Shown here: positions 1 through 16,369 of the stretch, piece after piece
Layout: each line of letters begins with the position of its first letter
Position numbering within the stretch: the first letter of the stretch is position 1
Notes under the pieces: model-generated
The model's database searches: none
The model's input: only the letters and a program-made list of their open reading frames with translations
Told to the model about the DNA's origin: nothing
Origin: Dirinaria sp. TL-2023a
Lineage: Eukaryota
Length of the DNA: 54,053 nucleotides
Assembly: GCA_051941275.1 (NCBI GenBank)
Contig: JAVEBF010000016.1
Location: forward strand, 1-54,053
Direction: 5' to 3'
Made by a program: the position numbers and the translations under genes

Positions 1-241
1 CTTACTAAGCTCGGGGCGACTACTTAACCGTTTTCACTAAGGCGAACCTTCTATCACACTCTGAGCGCTGAGCTTCGAGACGAAGCTCAGAGAGGGATCC
101 GAATAGTGTGTTACGACCCTGAAAACAAAATCAAGTAGTAAGATAGGCACCAAGTCCTTTGACTTGATTTAGTTAGTCTTTTGGCGCTACCGGGACTTTT
201 ATCATTGGGAAACCTATCTAATCAAGGTTGGGTCTTTGACA
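1..241 (+). mobile_element. 3' part of a miniature LTR retroelement (internal domain 1-108 plus 3' LTR 109-241), cut by the window edge
   Basis: 1-241 is a near-exact reverse complement of ~742-979. LTR 109-241 starts TGTTACGACC and ends CTTTGACA (TG...CA termini) and is preceded by purine-rich GAGAGGGATCCGAATAG. Confidence 0.85.
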
Positions 242-741
242 GATATAAGATTAAATAAAAAGACTGACTCAAAGAATATGACGAGTGAATCTCTGAATCA
301 AATATGAGAAATATATCGAATTTAATTCGAATATACGAAGAGTCTGGGAATATTAAACGTCGACGAATCGTCAAAAGAAAGTCGAATAGTTTCTCTTCTT
401 TCGAAAAGCAAAGCGCGTCAGCAACAAGACGTTCTAAAGAAAGAAGAGCGACAAATACACTGCGACGTAGCACTAAAAATAAATCAGTGAGATGATTATG
501 AATTATTTGCTATTCGAACTATTCTTGCTAAAAGTTTAATTCTCGTCGAAATAATAAGACGAGATCGACTTGATGAATTTCGAAAAGATATCAATAGTAG
601 AAGAGCGTATCTTTATCTTTTTAATCGATACTTTGATTCTTTTACGAGAAGATATTTTCTTCTCGTTCTCGTTCTCTTTCTCTTCATCGCCTCGATTCAC
701 ATCGCTAGTCTCATTAACTCTCTCGTCATCAATTTCATTAT
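242..741. repeat. AT-rich, hypermutated (RIP-like) relic, probably a decayed transposon
   Basis: AT-rich with only three CC/GG dinucleotides by eye in 500 bp (GGG at 346-348, CC at 690-691). The ORFs here are low-complexity, and the segment lies between two LTR-element copies. Confidence 0.6.
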
Positions 742-1200
742 TGTCAAAGACCCAACCTTGATTAGATAGGTTTCCCAATGATAAAAGTCCCGGCAGCGCC
801 AAAAGACTAACTAAACCAAGTCAAGGGACTTGGTGCCTATCTTACTACTTAGGTGTTCCAGGGTCGTAACACTACCCGGGTCCCTTTCTGAGCTTCGTCC
901 CGAAGCTCAGCACTCAGGGTGTGGGTAGGCGGTTCGCCTTAAGTGGAACGGTTAAGTAGTCGCCCCGAGCTTAGATAAGCTCTCAGCCGACAGACCTCGC
1001 CGAAAAACAACCCTTCAAGCGTCCGGGCTGGGATTCGAACTCAGAACCTTGCGACCGTGTTGACTTGGTTTAATGTCAAAGATCCAACCTTGGTTAGATA
1101 GGTTTCCCAATGGTAAAAGTCCCGGCGTGGCCAAAAGACTAACTAAACCAAGTCGGAGACTTGGTGCCTATCTTACTACTTATCTTTCAGGATCGTAACA
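742..1200 (-). mobile_element. Non-autonomous miniature LTR retroelement (TRIM-like): 5' LTR 1200-1074, internal domain 1073-872, 3' LTR 871-742
   Basis: Two ~130-bp direct repeats with TG...CA ends enclose a 202-bp non-coding internal domain. A PBS-like segment at 1060-1072 follows the 5' LTR, and a purine-rich tract (AGAAAGGGACCCGGGTAG on minus) abuts the 3' LTR. No matching TSD seen (ATTAT vs GAGTT). Confidence 0.85.
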
Positions 1201-1211
1201 GAGTTCTGATA

Positions 1212-1651
1212 CTCGTAGTCACCTCCTTTCTTGGTTCATCTACTTTCTTGATAGGATTAGGATTAAACATCTTCGTCTTATCAAAACGTCTTTCTTTATC
1301 AAATAATCTGATACTTCGGACTGACTAATATGCATCGATTTAAGAGATAACTATGAAACATTTCTTTTAAAATGCTCTATCGATATTAATTGAAACTTGA
1401 ATTATATTATACATATAGATAATTATTTCGCGTCTCTCGAAAAGACGATGTTTTGTCGCGATCGACAGTTTCGCAGCGCAATTTCGTATCGCAGATTCTT
1501 CAGATCGATGATATCTCTGACTCTTAAGTTGATGCATTTTAGATAGCAGATTATTTGACGTTGCAAGACGTTGCGGTTGAAGTGAATATTGTAACCCTAA
1601 ACCTATCAAGAAAGTAAGGTAGGTGAACCAAGAAAGGGGGGTGAATACGAG
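1212..1651 (-). mobile_element. Internally deleted Tc1/mariner-superfamily (pogo/Fot1-like) DNA transposon / MITE
   Basis: Imperfect ~55-60 bp TIRs (CTCGTAGTCACCTCCTTTCTTGGTTCATCTAC... at 1212; ...GTAGGTGAACCAAGAAAGGGGGGTGAATACGAG ending at 1651) with TA on both sides (1210-1211, 1652-1653). The minus-strand remnant SEESAIRNCAAKLSIA loosely resembles the N-terminal HTH of fungal pogo transposases. Confidence 0.8.
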
Positions 1652-2441
1652 TATGGAAAATATATTTGAGCTAAGTGAAATCACATTTAAGACGAGCTAC
1701 CAATCGTATCAGGATCATCATGATACTTGATAATCCTTTAGATAGTTCTATAAAAGTATCTTTTATCTTTCTTAGTAATCGGATCATACTACGACACGAG
1801 ACTCCAAGTAACGTAAAGGTTAGCATCTAGCTATTAACAAGAATAGGTAGATAAATTACGCGATAACCCTAAGGAATTTTTGACCATAAGGTAGGTCTGA
1901 GTAAGGTAGGTAGGTAGTGAGGCAAGCGAGAAGGGGTTGAGTTCTGAGTCAAGAACAACCCACAAGCAATAGTAACAAAGAGAGACGTCGAAGGAGAGTT
2001 CCGCAGCTTGACAAAGCTTTCCATCGACAAATTCCCGCACAGAAGACCGCATCGGTATTTGCAAAGTCATTGTTGGTCTGTTCTGAGGCATAAGGACCCC
2101 ATTTGATCTTTTTGAAGGTTGTCTTGCTAGCCAAGCACATATCTTGAGGAATTCTACTCATTACTAGTTGTCGGTCCTTGGCAAGGTCAAATCGTCTCTC
2201 GTCAGCATTATTCCCCTCAACCTACTTTTAGGCCCAGCGGCGTTCCATCGTCGGTGTCTCGACTGATCTAGGGCGGCCCCTAGTTCCCCTTAGAGGCTTT
2301 GCTCTTGCCAATCTAATTTCTGACAACCTTACTTATAACGATCATGGCTTTTTGGGTCGACATCTTCGTCGGCTCCACTCGTGCTCGTTTCGACAACCTA
2401 ACGGCGAGGGTACCTCAACAGCGCTCTCGTTGTCGGCATCA

Positions 2442-3986
2442 ATGGCAGATATTGCCAATGGCATGGCCGTCAAAAGCCCGCCTTCTTCTCTAGTCGAGTC
2501 AGACGATGTAAGTCACCTACTCAGCTCTGACGATCAATTGAGACGGATTGACCAGCTCTAGCGCTCCTTCCAGAGCACAGACGAAATGTAGGCTCTCCTC
2601 TGCTAGCCTTCATAACCGATTGGATCTCACATGGCATAGCGACTTGGACCTAGCATCAATCACCTCAAGTGTACTGGACTACGAGTTTGAGAACGGCCGA
2701 CGATATCATGCCTACAAAGCAGGCTCCTATCCTTTGCCCAACGACGAAGTAATGCTTGACCGTTTTTAGGCCCTTTCAAGGCCCCTACTTCGATGAATCA
2801 GTCGATAGACATACTGTTGCTCGAGCTAATGAAACCCGGTTTGCAGGCGGAAATGGAGCGCATGGACATCAAGCATCATATCTTTATCCTATTGTGCAGC
2901 GGGAATTTACATTTGGCACCTTTGACAAAGCCAGAGAGAATTCTGGATCTTGGTACAGGAACTGGCATTTGGGCCATGGAAATGGCCGACCAGTACCCTG
3001 AATCGACAGTGATTGGAACAGATTTATCTCCTGTGCAACCAACATGGTACCGGCAAATACTCTGCGAAAACTGGTGTCAAGCGGATCATACTGATGCCAT
3101 GGCTTTCTAGGGTGCCGGATAATGTTCGTTTCGAAATCGATGATTTCGAAAGAAATTACTGGTTCTGGCCGGAAAGTTACTTTGATTACATCCATTCTCG
3201 CTTCTTGGTCAGTTCTGTATCGAGCTACCCTGCTCTGATACGAAAAGCATTCAAGTCAGTCTGTATTCCTACCTTAATCTACAAGGTTTTGTACATCTGA
3301 CCGCCAAAAAATTAGACATTGCCGACCGGGCGGCTATTATGAACTACAAGATCTCAACCCTCGATTTTATTCCGATGACAGCACTCTTGAACACGATAGC
3401 AGCCTAAGTTACTGGTCCAAAGTTATTTGTGAAGCGTCAGCAGCGTACCGGCGCCCTGTCCCGCATCACACTGAGTTTACCGCATGGTTCGAAGAGGCTG
3501 GTTTCGAAGACGTGAAACAAATCATTTTAAAGTCGCCCACGAATCCTTGGCCCAAGAGCAAGACCCTCAAAGAGTCAGGTAACTTCCAATTGCTTGCTCA
3601 CCTTGAGGGCTTGGAAGGGATCTCTCTTGGACTGTTGACCAGAGCACTTGAATGGAAACCGGAGGAGGTCAAGATTCTAATGGCCAAAATCAGACCGGAA
3701 TTGAGAGATAAGACGATTCATTCTTATCAGATTCAGTAAGCCGCATCGCTTGAAAACTATTATCGCAGTCTTACTGATCTTCGAGTAGCTTCACTATCTT
3801 CGGTAGAAAACCCAAGGGTATACCATCGCCTCTTGCGACTTCACCTAGACTTTCCCCATCGGCACCTATCGTTGCTCCAAGCATAGCCAAAGGTAACTTT
3901 TTGCTGGTGATGATTTGCAAGCCGTGAACTCACACAATGTAGATGCGGGTCAGAAGTTGGCATCGAGTCACACAACAGCCGATTAA
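2442..3986 (+). CDS. LaeA-like class I SAM-dependent methyltransferase (multi-exon)
   Basis: Spliced frames give SITSSVLDYEFENGRRYHAYKAGSYPLPNDE, ILDLGTGTGIWAMEMADQYP, VIGTDLSPVQP, FDYIHSRFL and PTNPWPK, joined by GT-AG introns (e.g. GTAAGT at 2508). The terminal exons are less certain. Confidence 0.9.
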
Positions 3987-4605
3987 ACCGCCCTTTTCAC
4001 ATCCATCACAAACCTTACGTACTTGTTGCGGGAAAATGCCCATCACCGCCAACTATTGAAACAAAGCTTTCCAAGTACCCATGCTCGTCTACTGAGCCAC
4101 CAGACTGACTGGGCTACGTAGGATTCCGATCAGTCTCGCTTCCTGAAAATGGAGAGCGAGACCATAGAGGTGGATCAAATCGAGTGCTAGGGCCAAGATC
4201 CAAAGCGGGCACAATAGCAGTTGAAGATCACAAGCGACGTGAAGATTTTGGCGACACGCAATAACAAGTGTTGCATAGCCAGTCATGACGAACTCGAGAG
4301 AGTGACTGGGGGCAAAATCATAAGGTGACCTTACCATTGTGGTGAGCCATCATATGGTGAGGGAGCATCAGCAGTCTACCCCTTTTCACTGTTGTCACAC
4401 CCTCTTTACTACAGCTCGCCTACAATTTATGTTATTTGCCAGGCCAGCTTTTGGTCTTCTGGGAGCATGCAAGACAGGGGACTTGTAGCTTTTTGAGATT
4501 GCTCCCTTCCGTAGTGCATTGCTCTTGTTAGGGTGGATATCACTGTTCTTCCGGCTCTCCCTATTCTCGTGGGATATATTCGAATGGTCTGAGACGGATT
4601 CTATA

Positions 4606-5772
4606 TTACTTGGCATGCTTTCGATGAATCTCAATGACCTTTTGCACCTCGTCGTAGCTTCCCAAAAAGATGCCGGACCGGTCATGTATATGTTCAGGGA
4701 CCACATTGAGCATACGTTCCATACGGCTGTTCACGGCTTGGCCGCCAGCTGCGAGGAGAAGTCAATTATCGGCCATGGAATCGAGTGGAGGATGGAGTAA
4801 AGGTCTTACCATTCTCAAAAACCATCGCCATAGGAGCACATTCATACAGAATCCGCAATTTGCCTTTGGGACTTTTCTTGTCCGCTGGATACGCGAAAAT
4901 TCCTCCATAGAGAAGGGTTCGATATGCATCAGCAACCATACTACCAATATAGCGGGAGCTATATGGTTTTCCCGATTTTTCTAGCGGGTACTTTAGACAA
5001 TTAAAATACTCCTTGACGGGCTCTTCCCAATAAAGGCTGTTGCCCTCGTTGACGCTATAGATGGCTCGAGTCTTGGGCAACCGCATGTTGGGGTGCGTGA
5101 GAATGAACTCTCCCAGAGCGTTATCCATCGTAAATCCGTTTACGCTGCCATTCTTCATTGTCATGACAAGCTGAGCGCTCGCGCCATACATAGTGAAACC
5201 ACTAGCGACCAACTCTGTCCCCGGCAGCAGAAGCTCTTCTTGCTGACCTTCGCTTCCTTCCGCCAATCGAAAAATACCAAAGATGGTGCCCACGCTGACT
5301 CCTGCATCCAGATTGCTCGAGCCATCGATCGGGTCGCACACCACTGCATAGCGAGCTTTGGAGTTTTCGTGGAAGACGATGCATTCATCCTCTTCTTCAG
5401 AAACAAGAAGCCGGCACTTGCCAGACGTCCGCATTGCGGCGATGAACAAGTCATTACCGATCACGTCTAGTTTTTTCTGTTCATCCCCCGTGGTATTGGA
5501 GGAACCGGCAAGACCGGTCAGGTTGATCAGTGTCGCTCGCCGAATATAATAGGCAATCGACTTGAACGAGAATTGGAGGGCGTGGCACAAAAGACTGTCA
5601 CTGTTTGTTAGCCTACAGCCACGTCCGCTTTGGATGTTGGCTCGGCTTGCGTGAAGTCACCTGTGGCTTCTTTGTGCTTTGATTGTTCTTCGGTGAGGAA
5701 GCGTGTCAGCGTCACGATATCAGTATTGATCTTTTCTTGAGCCACTGGAACAGCTTCGCCGTTGGTCGCCAT
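4606..5772 (-). CDS. FBP1: Fructose-1,6-bisphosphatase
   Basis: Motifs GDEQKKLDV, DPIDGSSNLD, RYIGSMVAD and GKLRILYEC. Exon 1 reads MATNGEAVPVAQEKINTDIVTLTRFLTEEQSKHKEATGDF; two introns; ends ...HRKHAK* (TAA 4606-4608). Confidence 0.97.
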
Positions 5773-8300
5773 GGTTTTACGCTTGGTTTAGATGCAGCTC
5801 CTGAGCGTGGTTGATTTGATACTTTAGGAAAAGGGAGTCGGGGGCTCGACAATGGTAATACAGGGTCGACAAGACCGAGAGCAAAACAGGCGAAGGGTAC
5901 GAGCGTCGAGCCAAGCCAATCAGTAGAGGTACCTAAAGCAAATGTAAAAGTGACGTCGGTGGTCGACACCGCTGATGGTACGTCCGCAATGAACAGTAGA
6001 ACACTACTTTACCTTAGGTATCTTACTTACTACAGTACATTACATATTAATCTGGTTTGATGACCCCTTGCTGTCTCAGTCATGCGCTTGGGAGAGCAGG
6101 CTTTTCTTCCGACTGATAACTTGGCACGCAGACTAGGAGTCTAGGTAATGGACGGACTTAAGATCGTCCTCTACCAAAGCTCATTGGTATCTCGCTCGTG
6201 CAGCTACACAGAACATAACATGACTTACAAAGAGTCGGTATGGTGGTTTTATACCTGCAGTCGAGTACATGCACCTTACATTGGGTCCTTCAAGCATCTT
6301 ATTAAGGATGATCGTACGATCACGTGCATGGCGGGCAAGGTGATGTGTGTAAGGTAGGTACAGTACTTGGGTAAGAGACCAAGGTAAGGTAATCTATATG
6401 TACCTTACATGGTGCTTACATGTAAGATATGATACTTAGATGAGGTCAAGTTACGCTGTATAGATTTTCTTAGTATCTGAGTACCAAAGCTCAATCGGAG
6501 ACCACAGGGACCACTTTTTACACGCTCGCTGCAAGTTGTCTTGCTCGCCTGAGTTTCTACATTACTACGATGATCTCTTCTTGAGGTCTGGCATCACAGT
6601 GTAGGTCTTCCCCAGATTTCGCAGGACCCACTCGGAACCTTTCAACCTGATGATTTGTAAAAACCGCAAAACTAGAGTCTTTGACCTTTCGAGGAATGTA
6701 AATTCCAATGCACACGTCAGTCTGATTAAGAACACTCTGTCGTCAGGTTACCGCCGACTTAGTACTGGTCAAAGACTCTGGTAGCTAACAACTTGTGTCT
6801 GTATAGTGCTCTCTACTTATTCACATGGTATGTTGCATTACCTGATTACCCAGATATTTCTCCAGGAGCGGAGATGATTATGTCGTACATCGTACGCTGG
6901 AAATTACCGACTGAAGCCGTTAGTGGCTTTCGACGATATCAAATGGCTGTGGCTGAGCTCTGTTAAAGCTATTTTCAGCGAGGAGAACTTCGAGCACTTT
7001 TATGCAGATCAAGCCTAACATCTAGCAGTGCATCAGTGAATATTCTATTGCCTATCCTCATCAAGCTTCCAGCTACTATTTTGCATCCTAGACTATCGAG
7101 CGATAGCTATCAGTCCATCACCAATTGAACCTCTGAACCTTGGAGTTAAGCCCCACCGGCGAGGAGCTTGTCGAACATAGGGCAAGAGATTCTAAAGCGT
7201 ACTGTACCCATCGTCATGGTCTCAGAAGGTCTAGACATTGGCTTACAAGATGAATGGCACTGGGCTCCAACGGCATTTTACTGCTAAATGAACGACATGC
7301 CTTCCTGTGGCTGGTCCAAGAAAACCATGCCCACTGACGCACAATGATGCTGGACATCAAATCGCAGCGATCATGAGAATCGTGCATGAGCTGACTGATG
7401 AAGTTTCTTCAAAGGGCTTTCAACCCGATCCGAGCACTTGAGCCATAAATATCCAAGAGCGTTCGACGAGAAGCTCCGAATCCGTGGAAATCTTAGTACG
7501 GTAAGCGGTCTTTCCTCCAATCAACAATCATTTGCAGGATGAATGCTTAGATGACGAGTCTGATTGAAGAACTTCCCATGTAGACGAATCTATTTTACCA
7601 TTCATGCATTTCTGACAAACCTCTGAAATCTGTATTATGCGACCATCTTGTTTGTACTCGTACCCTTACTGACTGGAGTCGGTTAGATTTCTTCGGACTC
7701 TTCAACACGGGATTGCCAAAGTTTGTAAGTCGTGGAAATTCCGTTCTCTGGGATCGCTGTTCCACGTGATGATCTGTATTTTCAACGACAAGCATATGTC
7801 CGAGCCGGTTTTACCACCACTGAAGACGAGAATATTCTGACTGACACAAGGCTAAGAGTCTATGCCAAAAACCGGTTTCTATTTTGCAATAATTACTGAC
7901 AATTCCACTCTGTTTCCTAGTTATTTGGGTGTTGCGAGAATTGTACGTGACGCTCTTCCTATTGGCTTGTCCTCCTACGGTTTCCCTACGCATGATGATC
8001 CATTCTACAATCTCACGACGGTCGGCATAGCTACCAATCAGCTTTGATGAGATTTGCTCTGACCGGGCATACAATCTGAATTGCTATACTTCACGGTATA
8101 GCACGTTGCGGAGCTGCGGAAACTGTCTGAAAATTTCGATATGACGTCATACTAACCCTCACCTTCGCTACAGGCCTGATTGATAATTGATCTTAAGTGC
8201 TGCCCTTCGTATACATCAACGGCATTACCGACCATATCGCAACCGATCTTTCACAGTCCCAGCAAGAACGTTCTCTGAATGAAACCTTGCATTACCCACA

Positions 8301-15765: not shown

Positions 15766-16369
15766 CTTGAAGTTTAAGCGACCAAATAGAGACTAGTCGG
15801 TTGAAAATTAGTCTTGCTTCTCTGAAGTTCGATGCACGGTTCAAAGGTGGCTAAGAGAGCTATCAGAAGAGCGGAGGTCGATGCTCCCGTAAAGCTAGTC
15901 CGCAGCAACAGAGTACAGTATACAAGTCTTCTAGGACTGGTGCCAGCTAGATACTATCATCATAGAATGCGCAATAAACAAGGAAATGAAAATGGCCGTC
16001 GTACCTATCATCGATGGATTTTTGAGCGTCCTTAACATCCGAGTTTGGAGTGATAGAAGGCTCGAGAAACAAAGTCCAGGGAATAGCGGTCCGAAGAGTC
16101 TCGCCTATACCTTCCTTAAGCAGGAATCAGGATTCCTGAAGACACTACGAGACTACCTAAGTACCTTAAGGTTGGATGATCGATTTCGTAAGGTATACAG
16201 TACTCGATTTTGCGAAATAACCATAGCTAGTTCGATCTGGGGTATCTACAAAGACAAGCTACAGCTTGTTAGTGGTTTCCCTGTTGTCCGTGAAATCCGT
16301 CCAGCATTAATGCCCAACAATGATCTGTACAAGACTAAGTATATACACCATATGCGCAACCTGCCAATA

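Follow-up and report, generated by a model that had tools for sequence, protein, structure and literature searches.

Do the hairpins that recur among copies of a small repeat at one end of a fungal contig mark a structured RNA under selection, and what would such an RNA do? The question is raised by the first 1200 nucleotides (nt) of contig JAVEBF010000016.1 from Dirinaria sp. TL-2023a (assembly GCA_051941275.1), a 54-kb stretch (54,053 nt) that was analysed whole and is called the window here. A sequence-only reading had proposed that stems are kept between copies while loops vary, and that the domain between two long terminal repeats (LTRs) is a compact folded RNA, perhaps a packaging or dimerisation signal, perhaps a catalytic or guide-like module. 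We lean, with slightly more confidence than doubt, to a different answer: the hairpins serve in cis as signals for the replication of a 459-bp LTR retrotransposon that encodes no protein, resembles the miniature terminal-repeat retrotransposons (TRIMs), is copied by the enzymes of another element, and primes its own reverse transcription in the manner of Tf1.

When 1-1200 is searched with blastn against the whole window, only three related pieces come up: copy A (1-245, plus strand), copy B (979-739, minus strand, 89.1% identical to A) and copy C (1200-1070, minus strand, 88.8% identical to the corresponding part of B). The element is read on the minus strand for B and C and on the plus strand for A. 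The copies in 1-1200 are arranged tail-to-tail, and copy A (1-241) is truncated by the window start. Comparison therefore covers three LTRs (A, B and C) and one and a half internal parts. One full element can be delimited, all on the minus strand, with an LTR at 1200-1074, an internal part at 1073-872 and an LTR at 871-742. Its parts and those of copy A are as follows; hairpins carry the numbers used throughout.

1074..1200, minus strand: 5′ LTR (copy C), 127 nt, TGTTACG...TTTGACA, a direct repeat of 742-871 at 88.8% identity.
872..1073, minus strand: internal part, non-coding, 202 nt.
742..871, minus strand: 3′ LTR (copy B), 130 nt; contains hairpin 1 (815-834), hairpin 2 (786-808) and the U5 hairpin (750-767).
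1..108, plus strand: 3′ part of the internal domain of copy A, carrying hairpin 5 at 68-90.
109..241, plus strand: 3′ LTR of copy A, 133 nt; contains hairpin 1 (149-168) and hairpin 2 (175-197), both with one pair broken.

Both LTRs of the full copy start with TGTTACG and end with TTTGACA, so that the element has the terminal direct repeats (roughly 100-250 bp as a class, here 127 and 130 nt) and TG...CA ends of a TRIM. No stop-to-stop frame of at least 70 amino acids lies inside 872-1073. A single sequencing run, X1, shares words with the stretch (share 0.05). It yields a 228-nt contig that is identical to 803-871 and turns unrelated exactly at 871/872, which shows that the repeat terminus is real and that a B-type repeat is present at another locus; the run gives no cover elsewhere on 242-1073. 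Copy C and this independent copy both begin exactly at TGTTACG. The LTR ends are a near fit to the short inverted repeat consensus TGTTRNR...YNYAACA given in PMC3601003, which favours the minus strand as the sense strand.

Copies A and B (1-245 and 739-979) also form inverted repeats of ∼245 nt, 89% identical, with 496 AT-rich bases between them. Reading through both, a transcript would fold into a long hairpin of double-stranded RNA, from which small RNAs that silence the family might arise.

The evidence for self-priming lies just past the 5′ LTR. There an 11-nt site is the perfect complement of a sequence in the LTR itself, and that sequence includes one arm of hairpin 1. The structural features discussed from here on, some of them present in the minimum free energy (MFE) fold, are these:

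1062..1072, minus strand: primer-binding site TAAACCAAGTC, 1 nt past the 5′ LTR, perfectly complementary to the LTR's own GACTTGGTTTA.
1147..1165, minus strand: hairpin 1 in the 5′ LTR, ACCAAGTC-TCC-GACTTGGT, whose 3′ arm begins the putative self-primer GACTTGGTTTA (1154-1144).
1118..1140, minus strand: hairpin 2 (copy C), AGTCT-TT-TGGC-CAC-GCCG-GGACT, 9 bp including two G-U pairs, with a 2-nt bulge; in the centroid and consensus folds.
1082..1099, minus strand: U5 hairpin, ATCTAAC-CAAG-GTTGGAT, just upstream of the primer-binding site; in the MFE fold.
967..982, minus strand: hairpin 3 (copy B), GAGCTT-ATCT-AAGCTC, a chance-level stem.
872..928, minus strand: three-tier stem-loop abutting the 3′ LTR, made of CTACCC/GGGTAG, CCCT/AGGG and the 10-bp hairpin 5 (888-910); in the MFE fold.
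1031..1041, minus strand: AGTTCGAATCC, like a tRNA B box, with a T-stem, an acceptor-like 3′ strand and a T5 run 25 nt downstream (1004-1008).

The 10-mer AAACCAAGTC occurs three times in the window (0.10 expected), namely as the site and as its complement in LTRs B and C. Complementarity extends over 11 nt with the element's own 5′ LTR and over 13 nt with the B-type LTR, as is characteristic of a Tf1/sushi site, and the 3′ arm of hairpin 1 belongs to the 11-mer GACTTGGTTTA that matches the site. When the 107-nt stretch from R through U5 to the site is folded, the MFE structure contains a 13-bp long-range helix between primer and site (z -2.49; 4 of 200 shuffles as good), which encloses two local hairpins, hairpin 2 and the U5 hairpin. 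The two differences from copy B in the latter (761 and 751) retain pairing through G-U. In Tf1, Tf2, Tj1 and relatives (PMC10085805, PMC4600332), the element's RNA pairs through its own 5′ end with a site located just past the 5′ LTR; two further duplexes form in the enclosed region, and an RNase H cut yields the primer. The first 20 nt past the LTR do not start with TGG and complement the LTR instead, so no site complementary to a tRNA primer was seen, although the check over fungal tRNAs was not exhaustive.

The hairpins and loops that had been listed from the sequence are all there, except that hairpin 3 of copy A is cut. Hairpin 1, ACCAAGTC-loop-GACTTGGT, is in all three LTRs, with loop CCTT in B (815-834), TCC in C (1147-1165) and CTTT in A (149-168); in A one pair is lost to a G>A change, the 3′ arm being GACTTGAT. 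Hairpin 2, TTTTGGC-[GCT/CAC]-GCCGGGA, has an extended form in B (786-808), C (1118-1140) and A (175-197), where the closing G has become A and that pair too is broken. For hairpin 3, with loops ATCT and ACT, only CTT-ACT-AAGCTC (1-12) is visible in copy A, the 5′ arm being cut off by the window start. Hairpin 5, a perfect 10-bp stem, stands at 68-90 in copy A and at 888-910 in copy B, not at 878-900 as had been stated. In copy B it is nested within CTACCC (928-923) and GGGTAG (877-872); this nesting just before the 3′ LTR, the 202-bp extent of the internal domain (872-1073) and the variable spacer after TGTTACGACCCTG all agree with the earlier description. The arm pair GAGCTT/AAGCTC is common to hairpins 3 (967-982) and 5 (888-910), which makes cross-pairing possible within one RNA or between two, and CTGAG stands in tandem immediately before hairpin 5.

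To see how many such stems arise by chance, the 332-nt unit was dinucleotide-shuffled 2000 times. Perfect stems of at least 10 bp number one (0.0005 expected per shuffle), those of at least 8 bp two (0.033 expected) and those of at least 6 bp three (0.52 expected); with G-U pairs allowed, five stems of at least 7 bp are found against 2.45 expected. Thus hairpins 1 (8 bp) and 5 (10 bp) are not random, whereas hairpins 2 and 3 as first described are, taken alone, at chance level. The G-U pairs of hairpin 2 had been offered as a pointer to the RNA strand; in a stem of that kind they lose this value.

The differences between copies provide a second line of evidence. The alignment has 40 differing columns of two kinds, transitions and multi-base non-transition clusters in the LTRs. 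Downstream of the spacer 12 LTR columns vary, seven of them loop columns of hairpins 1 and 2. Of the three non-transition LTR clusters, one is the spacer after TGTTACGACCCTG, and the other two are the loops of hairpin 1 (CCTT, CTTT, TCC) and hairpin 2 (GCT, CAC). Among 200,000 random placements, 0.6% had all three clusters avoiding every paired column (p about 0.006) and 0.007% had two clusters wholly within hairpin loops (p 7e-5). The result is not merely circular, since folding B as a single sequence gives these two hairpins as well, and cluster placement is the one real piece of support, suggesting that stems are kept and loops are free. The B-type spacer and loop recur letter for letter at the other locus represented in X1, which makes them subtype markers and not local decay; they look like differences that arose while the element was still replicating.

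The transition columns look like CC/GG-biased decay following insertion: 15 of 24 are in CC/GG context (C before C, or G after G), against 39 of 119 background C/G positions. When the copy A substitutions were placed randomly on B, 34.5% of 400 trials were at least as stable as the real A (-30.0 kcal/mol, against a random-placement mean of -28.6 kcal/mol). B itself is more stable than all but 1.75% of the sequences obtained by randomly placing the reverse changes on A. This fits a structured ancestor and mutations that ignore its structure. Neither CC nor GG occurs in the stems of hairpins 3 and 5, so their perfect conservation between A and B needs no selection. The proposal that non-transition differences fall in hairpin loops holds for the two LTR loops and the unpaired spacer, while most other differences are CC/GG-biased transitions as destabilising as random ones. 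Selection on RNA structure is suggested, through cluster placement, for the LTR hairpins only; covariation gives nothing usable, and the changes in copy A do not spare structure.

In the LTR consensus fold of 36 pairs, 32 are invariant, one has a double change, one a one-sided change and two are broken in copy A; 150 of 500 shuffles match the observed covariation count. The sole double change (alignment columns 9 and 124, B 863/751 and C 1192/1083; T-A in C where A and B have C-G) falls within the terminal inverted repeat, a site for integrase at the DNA level. This matched change in the LTR ends may be chance under a C>T mutator or co-variation of integrase-binding ends. Where the internal parts overlap, none of 23 pairs has a double change, and visual inspection shows one C-G to T-A change in copy A for the outer helix CTACCC/GGGTAG. 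Three one-sided changes (918, 761 and 751) leave G-U pairs that exist only on the element strand. As a C>T/G>A mutator is active, pair-keeping changes of these kinds are weak evidence. On the element strand the 202-nt internal part folds at -76.6 kcal/mol (z -2.43, a stability that 6 of 200 shuffles reach); on the opposite strand it gives z -1.31, with 23 of 200 shuffles doing as well. The idea of a compact folded internal RNA thus keeps its footing in this z score and in hairpin 5, which is beyond chance, but it gains nothing from covariation (0 of 23 pairs), and two of the three variable-loop hairpins lie in the LTR.

At the 3′ end of the internal part, the three-tier stem-loop carries on its 3′ side the purine run AGAAAGGGA (889-881). 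A packaging or dimerisation role for the internal part is possible. Elsewhere in the core, the B-box-like AGTTCGAATCC matches at 10 of 11 positions and is the sole match with at most one mismatch in the window, where 0.76 are expected by chance. Around it (1000-1055, minus strand) is a tRNA-like piece with a T-stem paired at four of five positions, five of five if one GG>GA change is undone, and an acceptor-like 7-mer. Neither ARAGORN nor Rfam finds a tRNA here, and no A box accompanies the B-box-like piece. The piece resembles the 3′ half of a tRNA gene and may be a captured tRNA gene fragment.

These features can be combined in a tentative replication scheme. The RNA would start at or near GACTTGG, and its 5′ end would fold back onto the primer-binding site, forming a duplex that encloses hairpin 2 and the U5 hairpin. 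RNase H of the partner element would then cut this duplex to yield the primer. Hairpin 1 would form in places not followed by a primer-binding site, namely the 3′ LTR of the RNA or plus-strand strong-stop DNA, and would there mask the primer sequence with a look-alike of the site. Hairpin 5 and its two outer helices would present the purine run beside the 3′ LTR for plus-strand priming, and the same stem-loop may also serve packaging. Loops and the U3 spacer, free to change during replication, would have given rise to the LTR subtypes, with the remaining differences representing later CC/GG-biased C>T decay blind to structure. Hairpins 1 and 5 and the helix between primer and site may plausibly function as folded RNA stems.

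Several observations weigh against this scheme. The purine run AGAAAGGGA ends 9 nt short of the 3′ LTR, the abutting bases being CCCGGGTAG. A transcript start at GACTTGG is a predicted position, and a start at the primer would leave a U3 of only about 46-50 nt. No 4-5-bp target-site duplication surrounds the one full copy examined (flanks AACTC and ATAAT), and its LTRs are only 88.8% alike (11% differing, subtype clusters included), so that the full copy may be a recombinant of two insertions. No autonomous partner element was seen. There is no significant covariation, and with two to three rows such counts have no power; the 32 LTR pairs of 36 that are invariant are no evidence either way. 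The LTRs alone fold no better than shuffles (z -0.74 and -0.41), and perfect palindromes are equally features of DNA, which leaves the strand and the RNA level unproven.

The last points lead to the alternative that the inverted repeats act as DNA, with no RNA role, as protein-binding or integrase sites or as by-products of copying errors, their loops being prone to mutation in a hairpin or cruciform. Perfect Watson-Crick stems are identical on both strands, the outermost LTR helix, which carries the sole double change, is the terminal short inverted repeat that integrase recognises, and both the unremarkable folding of the LTRs and the want of covariation fit. Yet the internal part folds better on the element strand than on the other (z -2.43 and -1.31), the changes at 918, 761 and 751 keep pairs on that strand only, and an 11-nt complementarity to a post-LTR site has a known RNA-level function in Tf1-type elements. 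We regard this alternative as unlikely, though it keeps an appreciable share of our belief.

A more distant possibility is that the unit is not an LTR element at all and is instead a tRNA-derived repeat, tandem or like a short interspersed nuclear element (SINE), transcribed by RNA polymerase III from the B-box-like piece, with the 'LTR' as its body or tail. The 10/11 B-box match with its T-stem, acceptor-like strand and T5 run would fit in the internal part of such a unit, no target-site duplication is visible, and copy C is readable as a truncated unit. There is no A box or tRNA fold, though, and no A-tail; T4 and T5 runs within the unit would halt polymerase III ahead of the 3′ repeat; copy C and the X1 copy share an exact start at TGTTACG, unexpected from random 5′ truncation; and the TG...CA ends together with the primer-site complementarity indicate an LTR element. 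We hold this distinctly improbable. Almost no credence goes to the internal part as a self-cleaving or guide-like module, to which the compact stable fold with its long perfect hairpin, and the ribozyme-bearing non-autonomous LTR elements (retrozymes) that feature in PMC10886601, had lent some appeal. No conserved unpaired core is definable from two copies, and nothing suggests a guide target. Searched with Rfam at E up to 10 over 1-2400 on both strands, the region gave three weak matches outside or unrelated to the element copies, none on the hairpins, and no ribozyme or other family fell on the element on either strand; the catalytic or guide-like reading is thereby left without support.

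For the self-priming reading the closest relatives are Tf1 and Tf2 (Schizosaccharomyces pombe), Tj1, Tosmo1-3 and Tcry1 (PMC10085805, PMC4600332), which likewise have, right after a CA-ending 5′ LTR, a site complementary to their own LTR (11 nt here). The Tf1/sushi chromoviruses share with it further duplexes within the enclosed U5 region (PMC10085805, PMC4600332); unlike them, the element here has no gag or pol and measures only 459 bp. Its two extra duplexes are local hairpins, which may or may not match the three-duplex 'pretzel' published for the 5′ untranslated region of such elements. The descriptions consulted have no counterpart to the look-alike of the site that lies just upstream of the primer and forms hairpin 1.

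With TRIMs as presented in PMC6934838 and PMC10886601 the element shares direct repeats of ∼130 nt, a short non-coding core and a total length well below 1 kb; it differs in having no tRNA-complementary primer site or visible target-site duplication. Helenus, Ajax and Cassandra belong to TRIMp3, the TRIMs whose LTR contains a polymerase III promoter of tRNA or 5S origin (PMC10886601). Helenus carries a tRNA-like sequence with A and B boxes in its LTRs, and its fungal families come from Pucciniales and a few Agaricomycetes (PMC10886601). It is, like our element, a miniature LTR element with a tRNA-like piece and occurs in fungi (PMC10886601). Here there is only a B-box/T-arm-like piece, located in the internal part; since this lies in the core and not in the LTR, has no A box, and is not called as a tRNA by ARAGORN or Rfam, a Helenus-type TRIM was rejected.

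The fungal GalEa copia elements offer another comparison within Pezizomycotina: an LTR element that lacks a tRNA primer site and has a conserved hairpin, least conserved in its loop (PMC5445492). Their Conserved Hairpin Site is a palindromic 9-mer (CTGATCAGT or CTAATTAGT) directly past the LTR; its partner lies at a distance of 12-41 nt, and the LTR holds no complement of it (PMC5445492). In contrast, the post-LTR sequence here is TTAAACCAAGTC, whose complement lies in the LTR; as it is not a palindromic 9-mer of the CTGATCAGT/CTAATTAGT type, this assignment too was rejected. At the other end of the element, polypurine-tract stem-loops beside the 3′ LTR are mentioned for SIRE elements and human immunodeficiency virus (HIV) in PMC3601003. 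Both resemble our element in having a stem-loop, made of sequence just upstream of the 3′ LTR, that holds a purine run (PMC3601003); their stem uses U3 and keeps the tract in the loop, whereas in our element all of the stem lies upstream of the LTR, with the purine run on the 3′ strand.

A bolder version of the self-priming reading would make hairpin 1 a built-in decoy of the primer-binding site, a switch in a self-priming mini-element that would be the first self-priming TRIM and a parasite of a chromovirus in a lichen-type fungus. The primer can pair either with the adjacent look-alike 8-mer or with the true site 80 nt off, and in an RNA with both, decoy and true pairing are nearly equal in energy, at -37.0 and -38.0 kcal/mol, or 17% and 83% of the ensemble. 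If true, such a switch could time the onset of reverse transcription, or could stop the 3′ primer copy or plus-strand strong-stop DNA from folding back onto the site. A literature search of partial coverage, which is no proof of novelty, found no description of a self-priming TRIM. We think this version rather improbable.

The surroundings of the element are as follows. The first 2 kb of the window are AT-rich (39.5% GC) and without genes; the nearest genes are a methyltransferase-like one from about 2.7 kb and that for fructose-1,6-bisphosphatase at 4766-5656. Pfam found no transposon protein among 10 stop-to-stop frames of 1-5656. A fold-back unit of ∼446 bp (1209-1654), like a miniature inverted-repeat transposable element, adjoins the 5′ LTR; its arms of ∼105 nt are 79-92% complementary, and no clear target-site duplication was seen around it. 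At the gathering score Rfam reports only four small nucleolar RNAs (snoRNAs) in the window, all away from the element (at 6867-7617 and 15862-15965); their families are named after Aspergillus and yeast, in keeping with an ascomycete. Three of them, the C/D-box genes Afu_300, Afu_513 and snR75, lie within 750 bp on the plus strand and probably form one polycistronic or intron-hosted unit; Afu_190 is on the minus strand. A scan with the LTR pattern gave five loci in viral contigs and two in metagenome contigs, and one with the hairpin-5 pattern eight bacterial loci in prokaryote genome contigs and none in viral contigs; by blastn, none of these is element-like beyond the pattern.

As evidence for a new class of structured or catalytic RNA, then, the hairpins do not hold up; the best reading is that they are ordinary signals in the replication of a miniature LTR element that primes itself. 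If that model is true, the element is a very small natural template, 459 bp without genes, that holds everything needed for self-primed reverse transcription, and it would be convenient for working out which minimal cis signals Tf1-type elements need. A further consequence would be that miniature LTR parasites of self-priming elements exist in Pezizomycotina.

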